Counted from the first letter of the stretch, positions 42,077 to 51,103 are shown. The stretch is DNA of 64,000 nt from Nitrospinaceae bacterium (GCA_965223665.1 OZ245011.1:384001-448000); one strand, 5' to 3'. Program-made: numbers and translations. The notes: generated by a model from the sequence alone, not told the origin.

Positions 42077-42928
42077 TTATTCTAAAATGGTATTATCAAG
42101 TATGGCATCTTTAAGCAGTGCTTTTGCAATATTAGCATCTACTAAATAAGCGTCCTTAAGATTAGTTCCATTTAAATTGGTTCCATGTAGATTGGCCTCT
42201 AATAAAAATGAATTTGCAAGGTTTGCATTTTCCAGATTGGCGTAAGTGAGGTCGGCCCCTTCCAGGTTGGATTCTTCCATATCCACTCCTTTACAAAATG
42301 AATCCTTAAATTCAACTCCGATTAAATTGGCGTAGGACAACCGGACTGCTCTCAACGTGCAAGAATTAAAGTCAGAGTATTTTAGTATGGAGGAACGAAG
42401 GTCAACATCCGACAATTTGGAAAAGGAGAAATCTGAACCGCGGATATTGGCCCCATTCATGCGGGTGGAGAAAATTTCTGTAGATTTCGCAAAGCAATAC
42501 ATAAGATTTGAAAAAGAAAAGTCGCAATTTTGAATTTTTGAGGAAGTAATATTACTGTGGTCTAAACGTGCGGCGCGAAATTCACACCCTCGGAATTGAG
42601 CAGATGCAAAATTTGCATTTTCAATTTTGGCATTTTTAAAATTACAATTTACAAGGGTTGCATTCTGAAAATTGGATTCGCTTAAATTAGCACCACTAAA
42701 ATTAACATTTTTTACCCGGGCATTTTGAAACTTTACTTTGGTTAGGTTTGCTTGAGAAAAATTGAGATCAATTAAATCGGAACCATCAAATATTGCTCCA
42801 GACAGTGTTCCATAAATAAATGAAACTCCATTGAGACTAATTCCTTTTAAGTCATAAGAGCTTAGATTGGTTCCATCCTGGCATTCATTATTTAAAATGA
42901 GTGATAAAACTTCTTCGACGTTTGACAT
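42077..42928 (-). CDS. Pentapeptide repeat protein
   Basis: Near-continuous A(D/N)(L/F)xx repeats; ATG overlaps motA-like stop (TAATG). Confidence 0.92.
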   Translation of the reverse strand: MSNVEEVLSLILNNECQDGTNLSSYDLKGISLNGVSFIYGTLSGAIFDGSDLIDLNFSQANLTKVKFQNARVKNVNFSGANLSESNFQNATLVNCNFKNAKIENANFASAQFRGCEFRAARLDHSNITSSKIQNCDFSFSNLMYCFAKSTEIFSTRMNGANIRGSDFSFSKLSDVDLRSSILKYSDFNSCTLRAVRLSYANLIGVEFKDSFCKGVDMEESNLEGADLTYANLENANLANSFLLEANLHGTNLNGTNLKDAYLVDANIAKALLKDAILDNTILE

Positions 42929-43755
42929 TATTTTTGCTGATCTGGAGGAAGCAGAGAATTCATATTTCTTTTAATTTTTTGGGGATTGATTCTGTCATGA
43001 ATTCCCTGGATCCCTACTCTAATAACTTTAAATAATGTAGCTTCATTTTCAGTACGGTTGCTAAGCTTTGCCACAATTGGCGTGATGATTAAATTTGCGA
43101 TAATAATTCCATAAAAAGTAGTGATTAAAGCTGTAGCTAAGGAAGGTCCAATGGTTTCAGGGTTGTCAATATGCATCAGCATTTGTACCAAGCCAATAAG
43201 TGTGCCTGCCATACCAAAAACAGGAGCCTGGACGGCCATGAACCTTAATATTCGCTGACCCGCATTGTGTCGATCCAGCATTGCACTTAATTCTCGCTCC
43301 AATATTTCATGAATTTCTCTTAATCCATAACCATCCACAATCATAGCAATTCCTTTTTTGAGGAATCTATTTTCTAAGTACTGTTCTTCCGCTTCTAATT
43401 TTTTTAAACCCCCAGTCCTATATTTGTGGGAAAGGCTCATAATCTCTTCAATATAATCAGAGGGACGTAGAGTGTCTGGTTTGTAGGCATTTATTATTAC
43501 AGGGAATAATCCCAGAATTTTTTTAGAGGAAAAGGCAATGAAAGTTGTAGCCAAAGTTCCGCCTATCACAATAAGTATGGCATTTAGATTAAAAAAGGTA
43601 GAAGCATCTCCACCTCTAAAAATTGCCCAGACTAACAGGCTAATGCCCAAAACAGTACCTGCTAGGGTCATAGCATCAAATCGGCTTTCAGGGGAAGAAT
43701 CGATTTCTGTAGAAAAGTTATGAACGTTTTCAGCTTGTCTTAACGGAATTTCCAT
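42928..43755 (-). CDS. motA: MotA/PomA family stator A subunit
   Basis: IVIGGTL, YRTGGLKKLE, FLKKGIAMIVDG, APVFGMAGTLIGLVQML, ATALITTFYG. Confidence 0.88.
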   Translation of the reverse strand: MEIPLRQAENVHNFSTEIDSSPESRFDAMTLAGTVLGISLLVWAIFRGGDASTFFNLNAILIVIGGTLATTFIAFSSKKILGLFPVIINAYKPDTLRPSDYIEEIMSLSHKYRTGGLKKLEAEEQYLENRFLKKGIAMIVDGYGLREIHEILERELSAMLDRHNAGQRILRFMAVQAPVFGMAGTLIGLVQMLMHIDNPETIGPSLATALITTFYGIIIANLIITPIVAKLSNRTENEATLFKVIRVGIQGIHDRINPQKIKRNMNSLLPPDQQK

Positions 43756-43756
43756 T

Positions 43757-45835
43757 CTAAATACTGATTAGTTTATTAGTATCTAAAGTCCTGGCTATTA
43801 GAGATTTATGTATATAACTGGGAACCCAGGCAAGGCTCTCTAAATCTAATCGGCTTCCGGGAATAAAAACCTTAAAAAATTCCGGATGATCCTCGCTGAA
43901 CGATAAAATTTGAGGTTGGAGTTCTGATAAACAACGGGAAAGACACATTAATCCAGAAAAAGTTTTACAAAAAAGTTCTCCCCATGAAGTCAAGTATATG
44001 GCTATGACACTACGCACTCTTTCAAGTCTCTTTTGGACAAACTGGGTATATTCCTCTAAAGTTCTACATTCCTTTATATTTCCAATTGTGACTTCTTTAG
44101 GGACGGGATTTCCGAAATCAATGATTAAATATAATTGCTTTACATAAGAATCATTCAGGAGCTCTTTATTGGAAATTTCTGCGACATTGGTTAAAGATAA
44201 AAATCCGGAAAGATCTTCGAGTAGTTTTCGTAGATCATTATCCTTAATTGAATGATCTTCCGATCGAAGTAACAAAAAGGTTTCCTCAGAATAAAGTCGA
44301 TTAAAGCAAGTAAACGCTATTAGAAATTGGAGTGTGGATGCTTTTTTAATGATTTTTGCTTTCGGAATTTGCTCAATAAAATCTAATGTTTTCCCGCGTA
44401 TAAGAAACCACTCACCCGGGTCCCGGGGTTGTGTTTTATGGTGAAGAAAGGTCAATTCCTTTTCACTAGTTTTACCGTCGACCAAGGCAAATAAGTTTTC
44501 GACTTTATTAACTGTTTTCCGATAGAAACTGAATAATTTTCTGCCGAGTAAATGCGTGTCTTTCTCAGTAATTAAACTTTCTCCCGGCGCTAATTTTTGA
44601 TTGGCTTCAGAAATATTTTTATATGAATTCATTAAAATTTTATTGACACGATTTCCCAACGCTACCTTTTCCATCATTTGCCAATTAAAATAATCATTTA
44701 AATAATCAGCTTTGGCCCGAGGCCAATTCCATGAATTTATTAAGTCAATTAATATGACTTTTTTGGGTTGTGAACTTCCATATTTTAATTCGTCAACTGT
44801 AAGTTTTTTTCCTACTTTTAAATAAAATGCGGTTCGTAATACTTCCAATTCGTCACTAGTTTTGTTGTTTTTAAAGAAATTTTCTACTCTTTCAAATAAA
44901 TTAATATAAGGATCGATTTGATCAAATGGAATGCCGCTATAAACTTTACTTTTAATTTCGTGGCAAAGTAAATTACTGGTTGTAGTATTAAACATATATT
45001 CTTCTAATAAAGCCATTTTGATGAGGGTCTTGAAGGGAGCCTTAAACGATTTAATTAATGCCCAAATGGAACCTCCGAAAAATTCACCTTGGGATATATC
45101 ATCTACATTTCCAATATCTAGAAAATCATTACTATTTAAAAGAGTCTGGTGTGTGTTAACCATTTGGTAAAGCTGCTCATACTGTTTGTCATCGGTTTTT
45201 AAAGGGACGACCCACCAAAAGGGGATTTTCCCAGCAGTGATGACGGCGGTTCTATACATTTCTTCTTTTAGCAATTTCGCTTGTGCCGATCCGGTACTTT
45301 CAGAGTCGCTTTCTCCAAAAATATTTTCCTTCACCTCATTAATATCATTACTAAAAAAGTGTATTTCCAATCCATAGGTTTTCCATGCCCATTCTTCAAT
45401 TATTTTTAATTTAAGATTAAAAAGGTCTAGATTTTCAGGAGACACACTATATTTGTTTATAAAAACTGTAAAATCTAAATCAGATTTTACGTTTTGAGCA
45501 ATGGAACCGGCACTCCCCATTAATAAAATACATTCAATAAAAGGATTCAGGTTTTCATTGGGCTGTGAATGAATATCAGGGAAGAGACTTTCTTGAGCAA
45601 AACGGCATTCATAACTTAATTTGAACCCTTGAATTCCACAGGGGACTTGATCAGTTATGAATCCGGGCAGACCTTTTTGATTTATATGTAATAATCGGGG
45701 AATTAAAGTGAAAACCTTCCGGTCTTCAGGGTTGAGGTTGCTAAAGATTTCATTTATTCGGTGCTGATTGTATCGCAGGAAAATTTGCCTATTATGGAAA
45801 AGTTCATTTGAAATGCTCTGTCCATTTGTTGTCAT
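43757..45835 (-). CDS. cyaA: Class I adenylate cyclase
   Basis: MGSAGSIAQNVKSDLD (nucleotidyltransferase DxD), EIHFF, ESTGSAQAKLLKEEMYRT, AGKIPFWW, KSFKAPFKTLIK, DPY, FYLK. Confidence 0.87.
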   Translation of the reverse strand: MTTNGQSISNELFHNRQIFLRYNQHRINEIFSNLNPEDRKVFTLIPRLLHINQKGLPGFITDQVPCGIQGFKLSYECRFAQESLFPDIHSQPNENLNPFIECILLMGSAGSIAQNVKSDLDFTVFINKYSVSPENLDLFNLKLKIIEEWAWKTYGLEIHFFSNDINEVKENIFGESDSESTGSAQAKLLKEEMYRTAVITAGKIPFWWVVPLKTDDKQYEQLYQMVNTHQTLLNSNDFLDIGNVDDISQGEFFGGSIWALIKSFKAPFKTLIKMALLEEYMFNTTTSNLLCHEIKSKVYSGIPFDQIDPYINLFERVENFFKNNKTSDELEVLRTAFYLKVGKKLTVDELKYGSSQPKKVILIDLINSWNWPRAKADYLNDYFNWQMMEKVALGNRVNKILMNSYKNISEANQKLAPGESLITEKDTHLLGRKLFSFYRKTVNKVENLFALVDGKTSEKELTFLHHKTQPRDPGEWFLIRGKTLDFIEQIPKAKIIKKASTLQFLIAFTCFNRLYSEETFLLLRSEDHSIKDNDLRKLLEDLSGFLSLTNVAEISNKELLNDSYVKQLYLIIDFGNPVPKEVTIGNIKECRTLEEYTQFVQKRLERVRSVIAIYLTSWGELFCKTFSGLMCLSRCLSELQPQILSFSEDHPEFFKVFIPGSRLDLESLAWVPSYIHKSLIARTLDTNKLISI

Positions 45836-45919
45836 AAAAGAAAATTGTGTTTAGCTATGTATTTTGGTTATTAATTAATTATAAAACTATATTTTGAATA
45901 AAATTCATTCCTGGAGCGA

Positions 45920-45946
45920 TTATCGGATTTATTTCTTCTAACTTAG
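45920..45946 (-). promoter_or_regulatory. Possible sigma28-type promoter upstream of cyaA
   Basis: Minus strand CTAAGTTA-N11-TCCGATAA versus consensus TAAAGTTT-N11-GCCGATAA. Confidence 0.4.
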
Positions 45947-47475
45947 GGATTTAAAAGAACTTTGAAATTTTTCCCAGGCTGGTTTAGGGAGATTTTTTTA
46001 GTAGCAATTTCATCATCTAGTACATCCTTATCCTTTAAAATTTTGATTTCTACCCTTCGATTTAGAGCTCGGTTTTTATCGTTTGAATTGGGTTTTTGCG
46101 GCCTATATTTTCCAAAGCCTTTTACAACTATTCTATTTGGAGGAAAATTTAAGGATTCAGTTATAAATCTTGCAACTCTTGAGGCACGGGCTGTAGATAA
46201 TTCCCAGTTTGAGGGGAACTTTTCATTATGAATGGGAACATCATCAGTATGACCTTCTACATATATTTGTTTTACACCTTCTTTTAAATAATCATTCAAG
46301 GCTTGCTTTAAAAAGTCTCTTGCTTTGGGAAGCAGATCCGAATCTCCAGGAGAAAATAAATTATTACTTTGTAATCGAACAGAAAGAGTTTTAACATCGC
46401 TACGGATCAGGCTTTCGGGATCTACATTATCTTGAACTAATTCCTTAACCCTATTGAGCATAGTCACTTCTTGTTGGCTTAAATGTATATTGTCGTCATC
46501 CCAACGAAATTCTTTTTCTTGAAATGACGAGAATGCTTCTGCAAATCTATTTTGATCCACTTTAGAAATTGTAAATAGTAAAACAAAAATTACTAAAATT
46601 AATGTGATCATGTCACTATAAGTAACCAAAAAACTTTCAAGCCCTGAGGAAAACTCCGTTGAACCTTTAGCCCTACTGTCAATTTGAATATTGTTTTCAA
46701 AACGATCGATGTCTTTCTTTTCCTGTTCTTCAATGGCTTTTCTTTCTATATCTGAGATATATTCTTGCTGCTGTTCTAATTTTTCATTTAATTCATTGTT
46801 TTCATCAATTAGTTCACTAAGTTGATTTTTTAAATCATAACCGTATTCTGAAGATAAGAGACCTTTTTCCATGGATTGGGCTGATTCTTTGTAAAATTTC
46901 TCATAGTGTTCAATTAATTTTTCTTTTTCTTTTAATCGCTCTTGTAAATCCTCATTGGTTAAGGTAGGGCGTTTTTTTAGCTCGGTTTTTAATCTAATTA
47001 TTTGTTGATTTAAATCATCAATTGAGTTTATTTTTTCACGAAATCGGCGTAATTCTCTAAGTAGGTAAGATTTTTCCCGGTTACTTTTGTCCAAGGCTTT
47101 TTGTTCCTTAACAAGTCTTTTCCTTATGGCCTTTTCTTTTATGGTTAGCTCATCCAGTTTTTGTTTCCATTCATTTTTTAGATCCGGTACATTGACTCCA
47201 AAATCAGGCTTTCGAGTTTCTTTGTTTTCTTGGGAAGAACTTTGTTTAACTGTTATATGCCGTGATATCCTAGCAACCGAAGCCATTTGCTTGGCTTCTT
47301 GTATTTCCTTATCCTTCTGCTTTAACAGCAGATGCAGTTCGCGAATTTTATCTTTGTTGAGCTGAGTAACCTGAGAAACTTTGCGGTGCAATCTTGAGGC
47401 TTCTCTTTCCTGTTTTTTAAGCTCACTGCTTTTTATTTTTAACTGTTCTTTTACTGTTTGGAGAGAATGATTCAT
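45943..47475 (-). CDS. motB: MotB/MotS-like stator B subunit with long N-terminal coiled coil
   Basis: FLVTYSDMITLILVIFVLLF TM with conserved Asp; OmpA domain VEGHTDDVPI, SNWELSTARA, NRRVEI; aa 1-~270 heptad K/E/L/Q-rich. Confidence 0.88.
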   Translation of the reverse strand: MNHSLQTVKEQLKIKSSELKKQEREASRLHRKVSQVTQLNKDKIRELHLLLKQKDKEIQEAKQMASVARISRHITVKQSSSQENKETRKPDFGVNVPDLKNEWKQKLDELTIKEKAIRKRLVKEQKALDKSNREKSYLLRELRRFREKINSIDDLNQQIIRLKTELKKRPTLTNEDLQERLKEKEKLIEHYEKFYKESAQSMEKGLLSSEYGYDLKNQLSELIDENNELNEKLEQQQEYISDIERKAIEEQEKKDIDRFENNIQIDSRAKGSTEFSSGLESFLVTYSDMITLILVIFVLLFTISKVDQNRFAEAFSSFQEKEFRWDDDNIHLSQQEVTMLNRVKELVQDNVDPESLIRSDVKTLSVRLQSNNLFSPGDSDLLPKARDFLKQALNDYLKEGVKQIYVEGHTDDVPIHNEKFPSNWELSTARASRVARFITESLNFPPNRIVVKGFGKYRPQKPNSNDKNRALNRRVEIKILKDKDVLDDEIATKKISLNQPGKNFKVLLNP

Positions 47476-49147: not shown

Positions 49148-49837
49148 ATGATCAAAAGTAATCTACGTTTTATCTATTTACATGGTTTTGCATCGAGTCC
49201 TCAATCCCAAAAGGCGTCTATATTTAAGGCTAAACTAAAGGAAATCGGAGTAAATTTAATTATTCCAGATCTGGAAGCAGGAGACTTTAAATACATAACC
49301 ATTTCCAAACAAATGAAGGTCATAGAAAAAACAATAAATCAGGTGAAAGGTGGACCCGTTGTTCTGGTAGGAAGCAGTATGGGAGGTTATTTGGCAATAT
49401 TGGCTTCTCAAATTCATTCAAACGTAAAAGGACTTTATTTAATGTGCCCGGGTTTAAACTTTTTGAAACGATGGCGACAAAAGCTGTTGGATCAGAATCC
49501 TAAAATAAATGATTTTCCGCACTTGATAAGAGTTTTTCATTACCGTTACAATAAAGAGGTAGACTTGGATAAAGGATTATTTGAGGATGCTCTGCAATGG
49601 GAACAATTATTAATAGATAAAAAGCTTCCCATTCGAATTGTTCATGGGATAAATGATGAAACCGTGCCCATAGAAGTTTCCAGAAAATTTTCTAACAAAC
49701 GACCTTGGGTTAGTTTAAAAGAGTTAGAATCGGATCATTCGCTTCTTTCTCATATTTCCTGGATAATTGAAGATTGCATTCTATACTTTTGCCGGAATAA
49801 CTTTCTCAAAAATGGACCTACAAAGGAAAAATACTAA
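49148..49837 (+). CDS. YqiA/YcfP family alpha/beta hydrolase
   Basis: YLHGFASSPQS.KA, GSSMGG, HG..DETVP, SDHSL. Confidence 0.88.
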   Translation: MIKSNLRFIYLHGFASSPQSQKASIFKAKLKEIGVNLIIPDLEAGDFKYITISKQMKVIEKTINQVKGGPVVLVGSSMGGYLAILASQIHSNVKGLYLMCPGLNFLKRWRQKLLDQNPKINDFPHLIRVFHYRYNKEVDLDKGLFEDALQWEQLLIDKKLPIRIVHGINDETVPIEVSRKFSNKRPWVSLKELESDHSLLSHISWIIEDCILYFCRNNFLKNGPTKEKY

Positions 49838-50381
49838 AATCGAAAAATATCAAGGCTTAAAAAAAGCTGTCTGTTTATCAAAAATGGGTCATTTGGGGCA
49901 ATTAAGAAAAGGTCCCTTGAAGGAGCCTTTTTATAATCATCCCAGAAGGGTGTGTAAATCTTATTTAAAGTTTAAACATAAAACTCATGCAGGAGTATTA
50001 GCTGCTCTATGTCATGATTTGGTGGAAGATACTTTTGTCACTACTAATGAGATTGAAAATAACTTTGGAGTTGATGTCGCTATTTTAGTTAACGACTTAA
50101 CAAAACCAAAAAATGTTTCTTCTGAAGATTACGCGAGAAGCATCTACCAATGGCAATGGGAATCTAAAAAGCTTAAATTATGTGATATTGAGGACAATAT
50201 TTTGAGTTCTAAATTAATTAATACACATGATAGAAAAAGAATGCTTAATAAATGGAATAATTACTTAGAAAAACTTTTCCATTCAGCTAAAGGATCATTG
50301 GATGAATTGATGGAGTTTTATAAGAAATGGAATTTTGTTTACAATTTACTCCAAAATAGTTTGGCAGAATGTGCTGCTTAA
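49812..50381 (+). CDS. Standalone HD-domain protein, RelA/SpoT hydrolase (SAH/Mesh1)-like
   Basis: HLGQLRK, EPFYNHP, AALCHDLVEDT, FG..VA.LV..LTK, KLCDIEDN. Confidence 0.8.
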   Translation: MDLQRKNTKIEKYQGLKKAVCLSKMGHLGQLRKGPLKEPFYNHPRRVCKSYLKFKHKTHAGVLAALCHDLVEDTFVTTNEIENNFGVDVAILVNDLTKPKNVSSEDYARSIYQWQWESKKLKLCDIEDNILSSKLINTHDRKRMLNKWNNYLEKLFHSAKGSLDELMEFYKKWNFVYNLLQNSLAECAA

Positions 50382-50410
50382 AAATAATTATAATGAAGGT
50401 AAAAAAATAG

Positions 50411-51103
50411 ATGATTGGAAAATTTACAATTTTAATTGTCGATGATGATGAAGAAATTTTAAAACTTCTTCAGCATAAATTAGGGAAAGAAGAGAAAGAT
50501 AAGTTTAAGGTCATTGTTGCGACGGATGGTGAGTTGGCTTTGGATATAGTAACAAATAAAAAACCTGATTTGGTGATATTAGATGTAAATATGCCACTAG
50601 TAAATGGACTAGAAGTATGTCGGACAATAAGAGCTGATCCTCAAACCAAGGAAATTCCAATAATCTTTTTATCTGCGAGAAAAGATGAGGTAGATAGGAT
50701 TCTAGGCCTGGAATTTGGGGCGGACGACTATATAACAAAACCCTTCAACCCTAAAGAGCTATTGCTTAGAATTAATAATGTTTTGAAAAGAGTATATGGA
50801 GATGGAAATAAAACTGAAAACTTAACTCATGGTTTATTAAGCATTGATTTTGCGAAACATGAAGTAATAGTAAATAATCAATCCATAAAGCTGACTTTAA
50901 CAGAATTCAAATTACTTTCCTGTCTTTTGGAAAATATTGGTCAGGTTAAATCAAGAGATTATTTATTAGAACAAATTTGGGAACATGGAGACGGTGTGTT
51001 TTCACGTACTATTGACACGCATATCCAAAGACTCAGAACAAAATTAAATGAAGCAGGAGATTATATTGAGACAGTTAGGGGCGTCGGATATCGGTTTCAG
51101 TAA
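50411..51103 (+). CDS. OmpR/PhoB-family response regulator (PhoB-like)
   Basis: IVDDD, ILDVNMP, GADDYITKPF, LTLTEF, RTIDTHIQRLR, ETVRGVGYRF. Confidence 0.92.
   Translation: MIGKFTILIVDDDEEILKLLQHKLGKEEKDKFKVIVATDGELALDIVTNKKPDLVILDVNMPLVNGLEVCRTIRADPQTKEIPIIFLSARKDEVDRILGLEFGADDYITKPFNPKELLLRINNVLKRVYGDGNKTENLTHGLLSIDFAKHEVIVNNQSIKLTLTEFKLLSCLLENIGQVKSRDYLLEQIWEHGDGVFSRTIDTHIQRLRTKLNEAGDYIETVRGVGYRFQ

Follow-up and report, generated by a model that had tools for sequence, protein, structure and literature searches.

How the state of the flagellar motor is converted into a second-messenger signal is an open question, and most work on it has been genetic, in a few Proteobacteria. MotC-SadC and the Caulobacter motor-DgcB pair are among the known motor-to-second-messenger links. 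In Pseudomonas aeruginosa, a higher flagellar load raises cyclic AMP (cAMP) by a route that runs via FlhF-FimV, and the rotation response to cAMP is MotAB dependent (PMC6855561). The cyclases of these surface-sensing systems, class III adenylate or diguanylate cyclases, are encoded elsewhere, and the links were found by genetics. In contrast, the locus described here, from a Nitrospinaceae bacterium, carries a class I adenylate cyclase gene (cyaA) within a stator operon, between motB and motA, together with the gene for a putative dedicated partner, a pentapeptide-repeat protein (PRP). By analogy with those systems, we propose that stator state may be tied to cyclic-nucleotide production here as well. 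The operon lies in a window of 64,000 nucleotides (G000:C1:384001-448000), the whole stretch of DNA analyzed, taken from a source genome of 4.35 Mb that is 98.6% complete.

Our best reading of the sequence data is that the two motor proteins, MotA3 and MotB3, may form a third, specialized flagellar-type stator of this organism, co-produced with a CyaA-PRP cAMP module. We give a probability of about 0.5 to the proposal that the four genes encode a functionally coupled stator-cyclase module for motility-linked cAMP. The first-pass annotation had called four co-oriented genes in the order motB-cyaA-motA-PRP, with a 1-bp cyaA-motA gap and a motA/PRP overlap, and had seen in them a link between a peptidoglycan-anchored, 5:2-type ion motor and a class I cyclase. 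Open reading frames (ORFs) occupy exactly these positions on the minus strand (Table 1), and the junctions read TAG, one base and the motA ATG in the first case and TAATG, with the motA TAA overlapping the PRP ATG, in the second, leaving cyaA, motA, and PRP almost contiguous. That genetic link, joining a motor that is apparently functional to a cyclase that is apparently active, is real and conserved. No terminator-like site was found on the minus strand within the 107-nt motB-cyaA gap, which could be the location of an internal promoter.

The arrangement was surveyed in 120 Nitrospinota genomes, 102 of which (families f1-f4 plus G000) belong to the window's order, Nitrospinales; the surroundings of every cyclase match were retrieved, and genes were scored by tblastn. 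A cyclase match was present in 94 of the 120 genomes and an orthologous cyclase, at 46-95% identity, in 82 of the 102 from the order. In 53 of these 82 cyclase-carrying genomes, motB-cyaA-motA-PRP stands at a single locus; in five more (G017, G060, G082, G088, and G107), the same order extends across two contig ends, and six loci cut by a contig end (G014, G055, G081, G087, G098, and G104) are consistent with it, for a total of 64 genomes. Because the order recurs in 53 single loci and 11 split or contig-cut ones, it is far beyond chance, and the synteny first read from one genome holds in most cyclase carriers of the order. The cyaA-motA gap measures 1-36 nt in 62 of 64 loci, the motA-PRP gap -1 to 39 nt in 41 of 43, and the motB-cyaA gap 25-289 nt in 49 of 50. 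Similar patterns were seen in 80 metagenome contigs, which are not independent of the genomes: with B, C, A, and P standing for motB, cyaA, motA, and PRP, the counts were BCAP 39, BCA 9, CAP 7, BC 5, CA 1, CP 14, BACP 3, ACP 1, and AC 1.

Outside the order, the Nitrospinota classes hold only cyaA paralogs of 30-39% identity. No MotA, MotB, or PRP was found near these paralogs, and in the two loci scanned, their neighbors are unrelated (oxidoreductase, metallo-beta-lactamase fold, glycosyltransferase, DHH, rhodanese, and dTDP-sugar genes). As to the range beyond Nitrospinota, the contig scan gave one near-identical locus (95% protein identity), and the metagenome patterns caught only orthologs of 51-67% identity. 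Short class I cyclases also occur in Atlas clusters labeled Pseudomonadota and Thermodesulfobacteriota, where the gene context is not given.

Within the order, 15 of the 82 genomes carry cyaA-PRP alone (G026-G029, G031-G037, G089, G090, G092, and G056); G026-G029 and G031-G037 represent genera g4 and g5, and G089 and G090 represent g21. In G056 (L081, G056:C22, 5832-6107), a 92-aa OmpA-domain remnant, probably a decayed motB, sits directly upstream of cyaA. One genome, G054, has only a variant operon, motB-motB-motA'-cyaA-PRP (L077, G054:C44, 2539-10153, minus strand), in which tandem long motB-like genes of 530 and 500 aa precede a divergent motA' whose product is 47% identical to the MotA of the window. 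In G067, a variant copy, A'-C-P, is found at a contig end (L078, G067:C119) besides the standard operon. The architecture was not assignable in the last two genomes (G086 and G103).

By its sequence, MotA3/MotB3 carries all the features of a working PomAB-type ion-driven stator. It resembles the PomAB/MotPS-type stators, the TGI4 flagellar ion transporters of PMC12505986. MotA3 matches MotA_ExbB (PF01618) at 95.7 bits, and its top NCBIfam matches are PomA and MotP (PomA at 194.1 bits, under the cut-off of 341). When compared by phmmer with the PDB, it aligns over residues 26-274 with solved PomA and MotA chains (E values of 1e-42 to 8e-44), including PomA at 1.2e-42 (residues 27-267) and Clostridium sporogenes MotA at 8.7e-44 (residues 26-274), so that homology to flagellar MotA/PomA is full length and includes the expanded cytoplasmic torque-generating domain. 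Among 66 operon-type MotA sequences, the query and one A' variant included, R113, P178, T185, T213, and P226 are present in all 66, E124 in 64, and E121 in 62. In an alignment with Escherichia coli MotA, R113, P178, and P226 occupy fully conserved columns, and E121 pairs with the Glu of the LERD stretch. E. coli MotA contacts FliG through R90 and E98, in the numbering of PMC12505986. The charges for FliG contact thus have counterparts in MotA3, an invariant Arg (R113) and the acidic E121/E124, and the channel prolines are retained, as are Thr residues that PomA also has.

MotB3 supplies the complementary elements of a stator channel. It contains MotB_plug (PF13677, 49.7 bits, residues 279-320) and an OmpA-like domain (PF00691, 64.7 bits, residues 373-473), and its best NCBIfam match is MotS (139.8 bits, under the cut-off of 264). 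The ion-binding Asp288, which lies in the transmembrane helix at the channel and complements the channel prolines P178 and P226 of MotA3, is conserved in all 32 full-length orthologs. The AlphaFold2 model of MotB3 (predicted local distance difference test [pLDDT] score of 74.5; predicted template modeling score of 0.33) places cytoplasmic helices at residues 2-74, 101-168, 174-203, and 209-266, followed by the transmembrane helix (278-305), a plug helix (308-319), and the peptidoglycan-binding domain. The N-terminal extension of about 280 residues would therefore be a cytoplasmic coiled coil. This extension differs from the known PomAB/MotPS-type stators in that it falls outside the coverage of solved MotB/PomB chains, which match MotB3 over residues 329-490, with matches beginning at residue 280 or later; the N-terminal domain had no usable match in the Atlas, and a word-indexed protein search with it returned 10 proteins, all long MotBs, the single named one being from Nitrospinae. 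MotA3/MotB3 also differs from those stators in gene order, since motA and motB are not adjacent here and motB comes first with the cyclase gene in between, and in scoring under the NCBIfam equivalog cut-offs.

The source genome holds six MotA_ExbB-family genes, three of them PomA-type, which answers in the negative the question, raised at first pass, of whether this is the organism's only stator: a canonical motAB pair and a second motA/long-motB pair are also present (Table 1), both in the order motA-motB. The pair with the 499-aa MotB is not adjacent to any cyclase and is conserved across the order, also where the cyclase-linked stator has been lost. MotB3 and the 499-aa MotB are 28% identical over their full length, N-terminal tip and coiled coil included. 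In an alignment of 35 MotB sequences, four of them of the second long type, E10 and Q11 are invariant, and Q6, K9, L12, E18, and K21 are conserved in at least 90%. Downstream of the second long-motB pair are ORFs of 131 and 212 aa, for which no Pfam or NCBIfam match was found.

A maximum-likelihood tree built from 47 MotA sequences places the cyclase-linked MotAs in one clade (support 98/96), with the A' variants nearest to it and, next out, MotAs of other Nitrospinota classes that come from ordinary motA plus short-motB pairs; MotA1 and MotA2 fall in separate clades (100/100 each). The linked MotA clade is thus sister to ordinary stator pairs of other classes. A quick tree of the C-terminal 235 residues of MotB agrees, placing the linked MotBs together with the B' variants (Shimodaira-Hasegawa-like approximate likelihood ratio test, 99), apart from the other two types. 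From these placements, the module seems to be one of three old stator lineages of the flagellar type, one that a cyaA-PRP pair captured within Nitrospinales.

E. coli CyaA, at 848 aa, has a C-terminal part that is a regulatory region, and nucleotidyltransferases of this kind carry a G-S...D-x-D catalytic signature. The CyaA of the operon resembles it in having both class I Pfam domains, Adenyl_cycl_N (PF12633, 166 bits, 1e-48) and Adenylate_cycl (PF01295, 234 bits, 4.7e-69), and an invariant GS...SDLD signature. Unlike the E. coli enzyme, it lacks the E. coli-type C-terminal third: the PF01295 match spans just profile positions 1-407 of 601, with the C-terminal region missing or different, and the NCBIfam class I cyclase match reaches 446.6 bits, under the cut-off of 802. 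It also differs in being paired with PRP and, mostly, with stator genes as well. G107, S108, G110, S118, D119, and D121 are present in all 71 CyaA orthologs, stator-less lineages included, and the signature residues are conserved at 97% or more in 87 sequences that include distant paralogs. CyaA is the sole class I cyclase of the source genome and, judging from these residues, is apparently active. Its AlphaFold2 model (pLDDT of 84.6) finds as nearest solved folds, weakly, nucleotidyltransferases of the polymerase beta type (AadA/ANT and DrrA), with a best E value of 1.6e-3 and no match at E ≤ 0.001. No solved structure for CyaA was found by sequence with a profile of 50 orthologs.

The cyclase and PRP always occur together. 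A PRP ortholog (Pentapeptide, PF00805, 161 bits in the window) is present once per genome in 82 of the 120 genomes, all inside the order, and always adjoins motA or cyaA, contig-end fragments excepted. All 62 complete copies measure 283-286 aa even as identity drops to 44%, which suggests that a fixed number of beta-helix coils is required. Complex prediction was performed with a 50-row CyaA alignment and a 50-row PRP alignment, in three runs and with three controls. The CyaA-PRP model scored 0.64, 0.66, and 0.64, and the best control scored 0.00; among solved complexes, 58 of 80 attain this score mark, and among mismatched pairs, 2 of 110 do, counts that are rough here, custom alignments having been used. 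The runs agreed in at least 93% of contacts, with a partner pLDDT of at least 90. Because sequence searches found no solved structure of a class I cyclase, the predictor is unlikely to have drawn this result from a complex that it already knew.

The predicted interface comprises residues 13-32, 74-79, and 232 of CyaA and, alongside them, residues 109, 128-129, 144-149, 164-169, 189, 209, 229, 249, and 269 of PRP. The contact stripe on PRP repeats every 20 residues, that is, once per coil, and follows one face of the beta-helix, where it meets the N-terminal helix of CyaA (residues ~13-32). Conservation of the PRP interface is 0.86 versus a protein average of 0.70 (permutation P = 0.0013), and Y144, G164, D166, D209, and Y229 are invariant. 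The prediction supports the binding of PRP to CyaA. The first-pass annotation had suggested that PRP could be an adaptor or effector, and a role as adaptor for, or partner of, the cyclase is supported both by this model, which passed its controls, and by the constant adjacency of the two genes. PRP belongs to the same pentapeptide-repeat family as the DNA mimics Qnr and MfpA. Unlike them, it scores under their cut-offs (73 bits versus 240 for Qnr and 61.9 versus 360 for MfpA), and its predicted partner is an adenylate cyclase helix, not gyrase. A role for PRP as a secretion-system effector (PipB, PipB2, or SopA) was considered and rejected, as the NCBIfam scores are far under the cut-offs and were read as generic repeat similarity.

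The module is almost restricted to flagellated members of the order. FlhA and FliG are encoded in the source genome outside the window, as are five other MotA_ExbB-family matches; the statement of the first-pass annotation that the 64 kb contain no flagellar or chemotaxis genes agrees with these markers, the ones checked, but the genome as a whole is that of a flagellated organism. In the order, cyaA and FlhA are both present in 79 of 102 genomes and both absent in 15, which represent four genera and include 7 genomes that are at least 90% complete. Discordant genomes number eight: three with cyaA and no FlhA (G013, G014, and G026) and five with FlhA and no cyaA (G030, G049, G052, G070, and G093). 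Five of the eight are less than 80% complete; in G070 and G049, operon genes stand at the start of a contig, with the cyclase itself unassembled; and in G052 FlhA is broken. The G052 gene (G052:C5:292151-293624) contains an in-frame TGA, and its match is split, although the genome is 98% complete; the cyclase and all PomA-type stators are absent as well, and this lineage looks like one in the process of flagellum loss. In G017 (97% complete), which encodes FlhA, FliG, and flagellins, the cyclase-linked MotA is the only PomA-type MotA found.

The source genome contains 10 matches to cyclic nucleotide monophosphate (cNMP)-binding domains. One region, G000:C1:274518-275096, belongs to an 810-aa open frame with two such domains that lies outside the window, the canonical motAB being some 10 kb and flhA some 28 kb away; this protein is a possible cAMP receiver near flagellar genes. 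The genes flanking the operon are convergent or divergent and unrelated, a sulfatase-like gene of the formylglycine-generating-enzyme type on one side and a major facilitator superfamily transporter on the other. At window positions 49767-51103, about 2-3.6 kb past the motB end and on the strand opposite to the operon, an HD-domain protein (PF13328) and an OmpR-type response regulator are encoded, with no evident link to the operon.

Table 1. Stator-cyclase operon of the window and related flagellar loci of the source genome
Feature	Position	Strand	Description
motB3-long	window 45943..47475	minus	510 aa; Pfam MotB_plug + OmpA
motB-cyaA spacer	window 45836..45942	minus	107 nt, AT-rich
cyaA	window 43757..45835	minus	Short-form class I adenylate cyclase, 692 aa; PF12633 + PF01295
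motA3	window 42928..43755	minus	PomA/MotP-like stator A subunit, 275 aa; PF01618 MotA_ExbB
PRP	window 42077..42928	minus	Pentapeptide-repeat beta-helix protein, cytoplasmic, 283 aa; PF00805
flhA	C1:245351-247318		
Canonical motA + short motB	C1:263194-264789		MotB of 268 aa; ~16 kb from flhA
motA, then long motB	C1:620467-622768 (locus L053 4467-6768)	minus	261 aa and 499 aa; outside window

For a coupled module, we propose the following sequence of events. MotA3/MotB3 would dock at the flagellar rotor, and its channel would open in response to load, surface contact, or sodium-motive force. The state of the stator would then be relayed to CyaA-PRP via the cytoplasmic domain of MotA, the coiled coil of MotB, or both, and CyaA-PRP would set its cAMP output correspondingly, with the cAMP acting on the cNMP-binding proteins of the genome. 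Such a module would hard-wire a motor-state-to-second-messenger link of the type known from Pseudomonas and Caulobacter. In a more specific form, the stator would be the sensory input of the cyclase, with docking, load, or sodium flux transmitted through PRP, possibly with a contribution from the MotB coiled coil. A hard-wired mechanosensor-to-cAMP pathway encoded in an operon would be without known precedent, as would a protein that regulates a class I cyclase and does not belong to the sugar-phosphotransferase system, but we regard this form as doubtful. In the full text of the literature searched, no description was found of a stator-cyclase operon, of a PRP acting as partner to a class I cyclase, or of a coiled coil at the N terminus of a MotB, and the terms "cyclase" and "Nitrospin" are absent from the excerpted text of PMC12505986.

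Several observations weigh against coupling. The cyaA-PRP pair occurs without a linked stator in 15 of 82 genomes, and constraint on CyaA is not relaxed in these, with deviations in at least two of the three motor-less lineages at just 2 of 225 conserved positions. The cyclase thus does not rely on this particular stator. The coiled coil and its conserved tip are common to the cyclase-free long MotB and are therefore not a cyclase-specific adaptor. In the predicted complex, the interface positions of CyaA show no excess of conservation over the remainder of the protein (0.65 versus 0.70; P = 0.81), and the physical link from the motor to CyaA or PRP is one that we infer, the complex model covering the CyaA-PRP pair alone. 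Every NCBIfam equivalog cut-off is missed by the operon proteins. As for co-occurrence, related genomes are not independent samples, and the joint loss of flagella and cyclase could result from general genome streamlining. G092 (92% complete) has flagellar genes and cyaA-PRP with no PomA-type stator found; stator absence in a metagenome-assembled genome, as used above for G017, is therefore weak evidence. Taken with the shared coiled coil, the unrelaxed cyclase of the stator-less genomes indicates that cyaA-PRP goes with the flagellated lifestyle and not strictly with this stator.

Some of these points are what would be expected if the operon served co-expression only, an additional stator of the MotCD or MotPS kind sharing a transcript with a separate source of motility-related cAMP and with no physical or allosteric coupling between them. 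Cyclases of stator-less genomes retain an intact catalytic motif, the cyclase follows flagella as such and not the linked stator, and the MotB coiled coil also occurs in the pair unlinked to a cyclase. We nevertheless consider co-expression alone unlikely, as cyaA interrupts the near-universal motA-motB adjacency and this interruption is retained in 64 of 82 genomes. Moreover, B-B-A'-C-P is an independent second arrangement in which a stator and cyaA-PRP stand together, and the motA-PRP spacing given above fits the coupled production of proteins that work together. If a functionally coupled module is preferred on these grounds, the direction of signaling is a further matter, and the present results fit stator to cyclase and cyclase to stator alike. 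CyaA-PRP or cAMP might act on the stator as a brake, clutch, or assembly factor. [quoted passage not shown] We see a slim chance for control in this direction, as no cNMP-binding domain was found by Pfam in the four operon proteins and cyaA-PRP outlasts the loss of the linked stator.

ZorAB of the Zorya systems is a MotAB-family ion-driven complex with a long coiled-coil element, a long cytoplasmic tail in ZorA, and non-motility effectors. The operon is reminiscent of it in joining a MotAB-family complex with a long coiled coil to non-motility proteins, and the first-pass annotation had proposed a repurposed 5:2 motor of the ExbBD, TolQR, or Zorya kind that would convert envelope load, ion-motive force, or phage injection into cAMP, a reading in which the flagellum would play no part. 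The atypical gene order, the location of all flagellar markers checked outside the window, the failure to reach any flagellar NCBIfam equivalog cut-off, weak ZorB matches of MotB3 of up to 78 bits, and a loose resemblance of its coiled coil to the ZorA tail would all agree with this. It is, however, improbable in light of the other results. PADLOC returned no match for MotA3, CyaA, or PRP, so that the ZorA models miss MotA3, which instead aligns end to end with solved PomA/MotA; the coiled coil is at the N terminus of MotB3 and not in an A-subunit tail; and no ZorC- or ZorD-like gene was seen among the operon neighbors scanned. The ZorB matches of MotB3 are generic and weaker than its flagellar MotB-family matches, and a defense-system reading based on them was set aside. 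In addition, the FliG-contact Arg is invariant and the acidic residues are kept in 62-64 of 66 sequences, the plug and OmpA-like domain of MotB3 are flagellar-stator traits according to PMC12505986, the module is essentially confined to FlhA-carrying genomes, and its nearest outgroups are ordinary motA-motB pairs. The non-flagellar motor of the initial proposal is not supported, and MotA3 is read as a PomA-type stator subunit in a flagellated organism.

A stator-cyclase module of this kind, with the cyclase and its partner encoded between and beside the two stator genes, points to a handful of defined proteins amenable to reconstitution. PRP is a candidate protein regulator of class I adenylate cyclases, which would be a new role for pentapeptide-repeat proteins, and MotB3 stands out among stator B subunits for its long coiled coil in the cytoplasm. 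Since the carriers are relatives of the main marine nitrite oxidizers, motility-linked cAMP could bear on how these bacteria find and hold particles.

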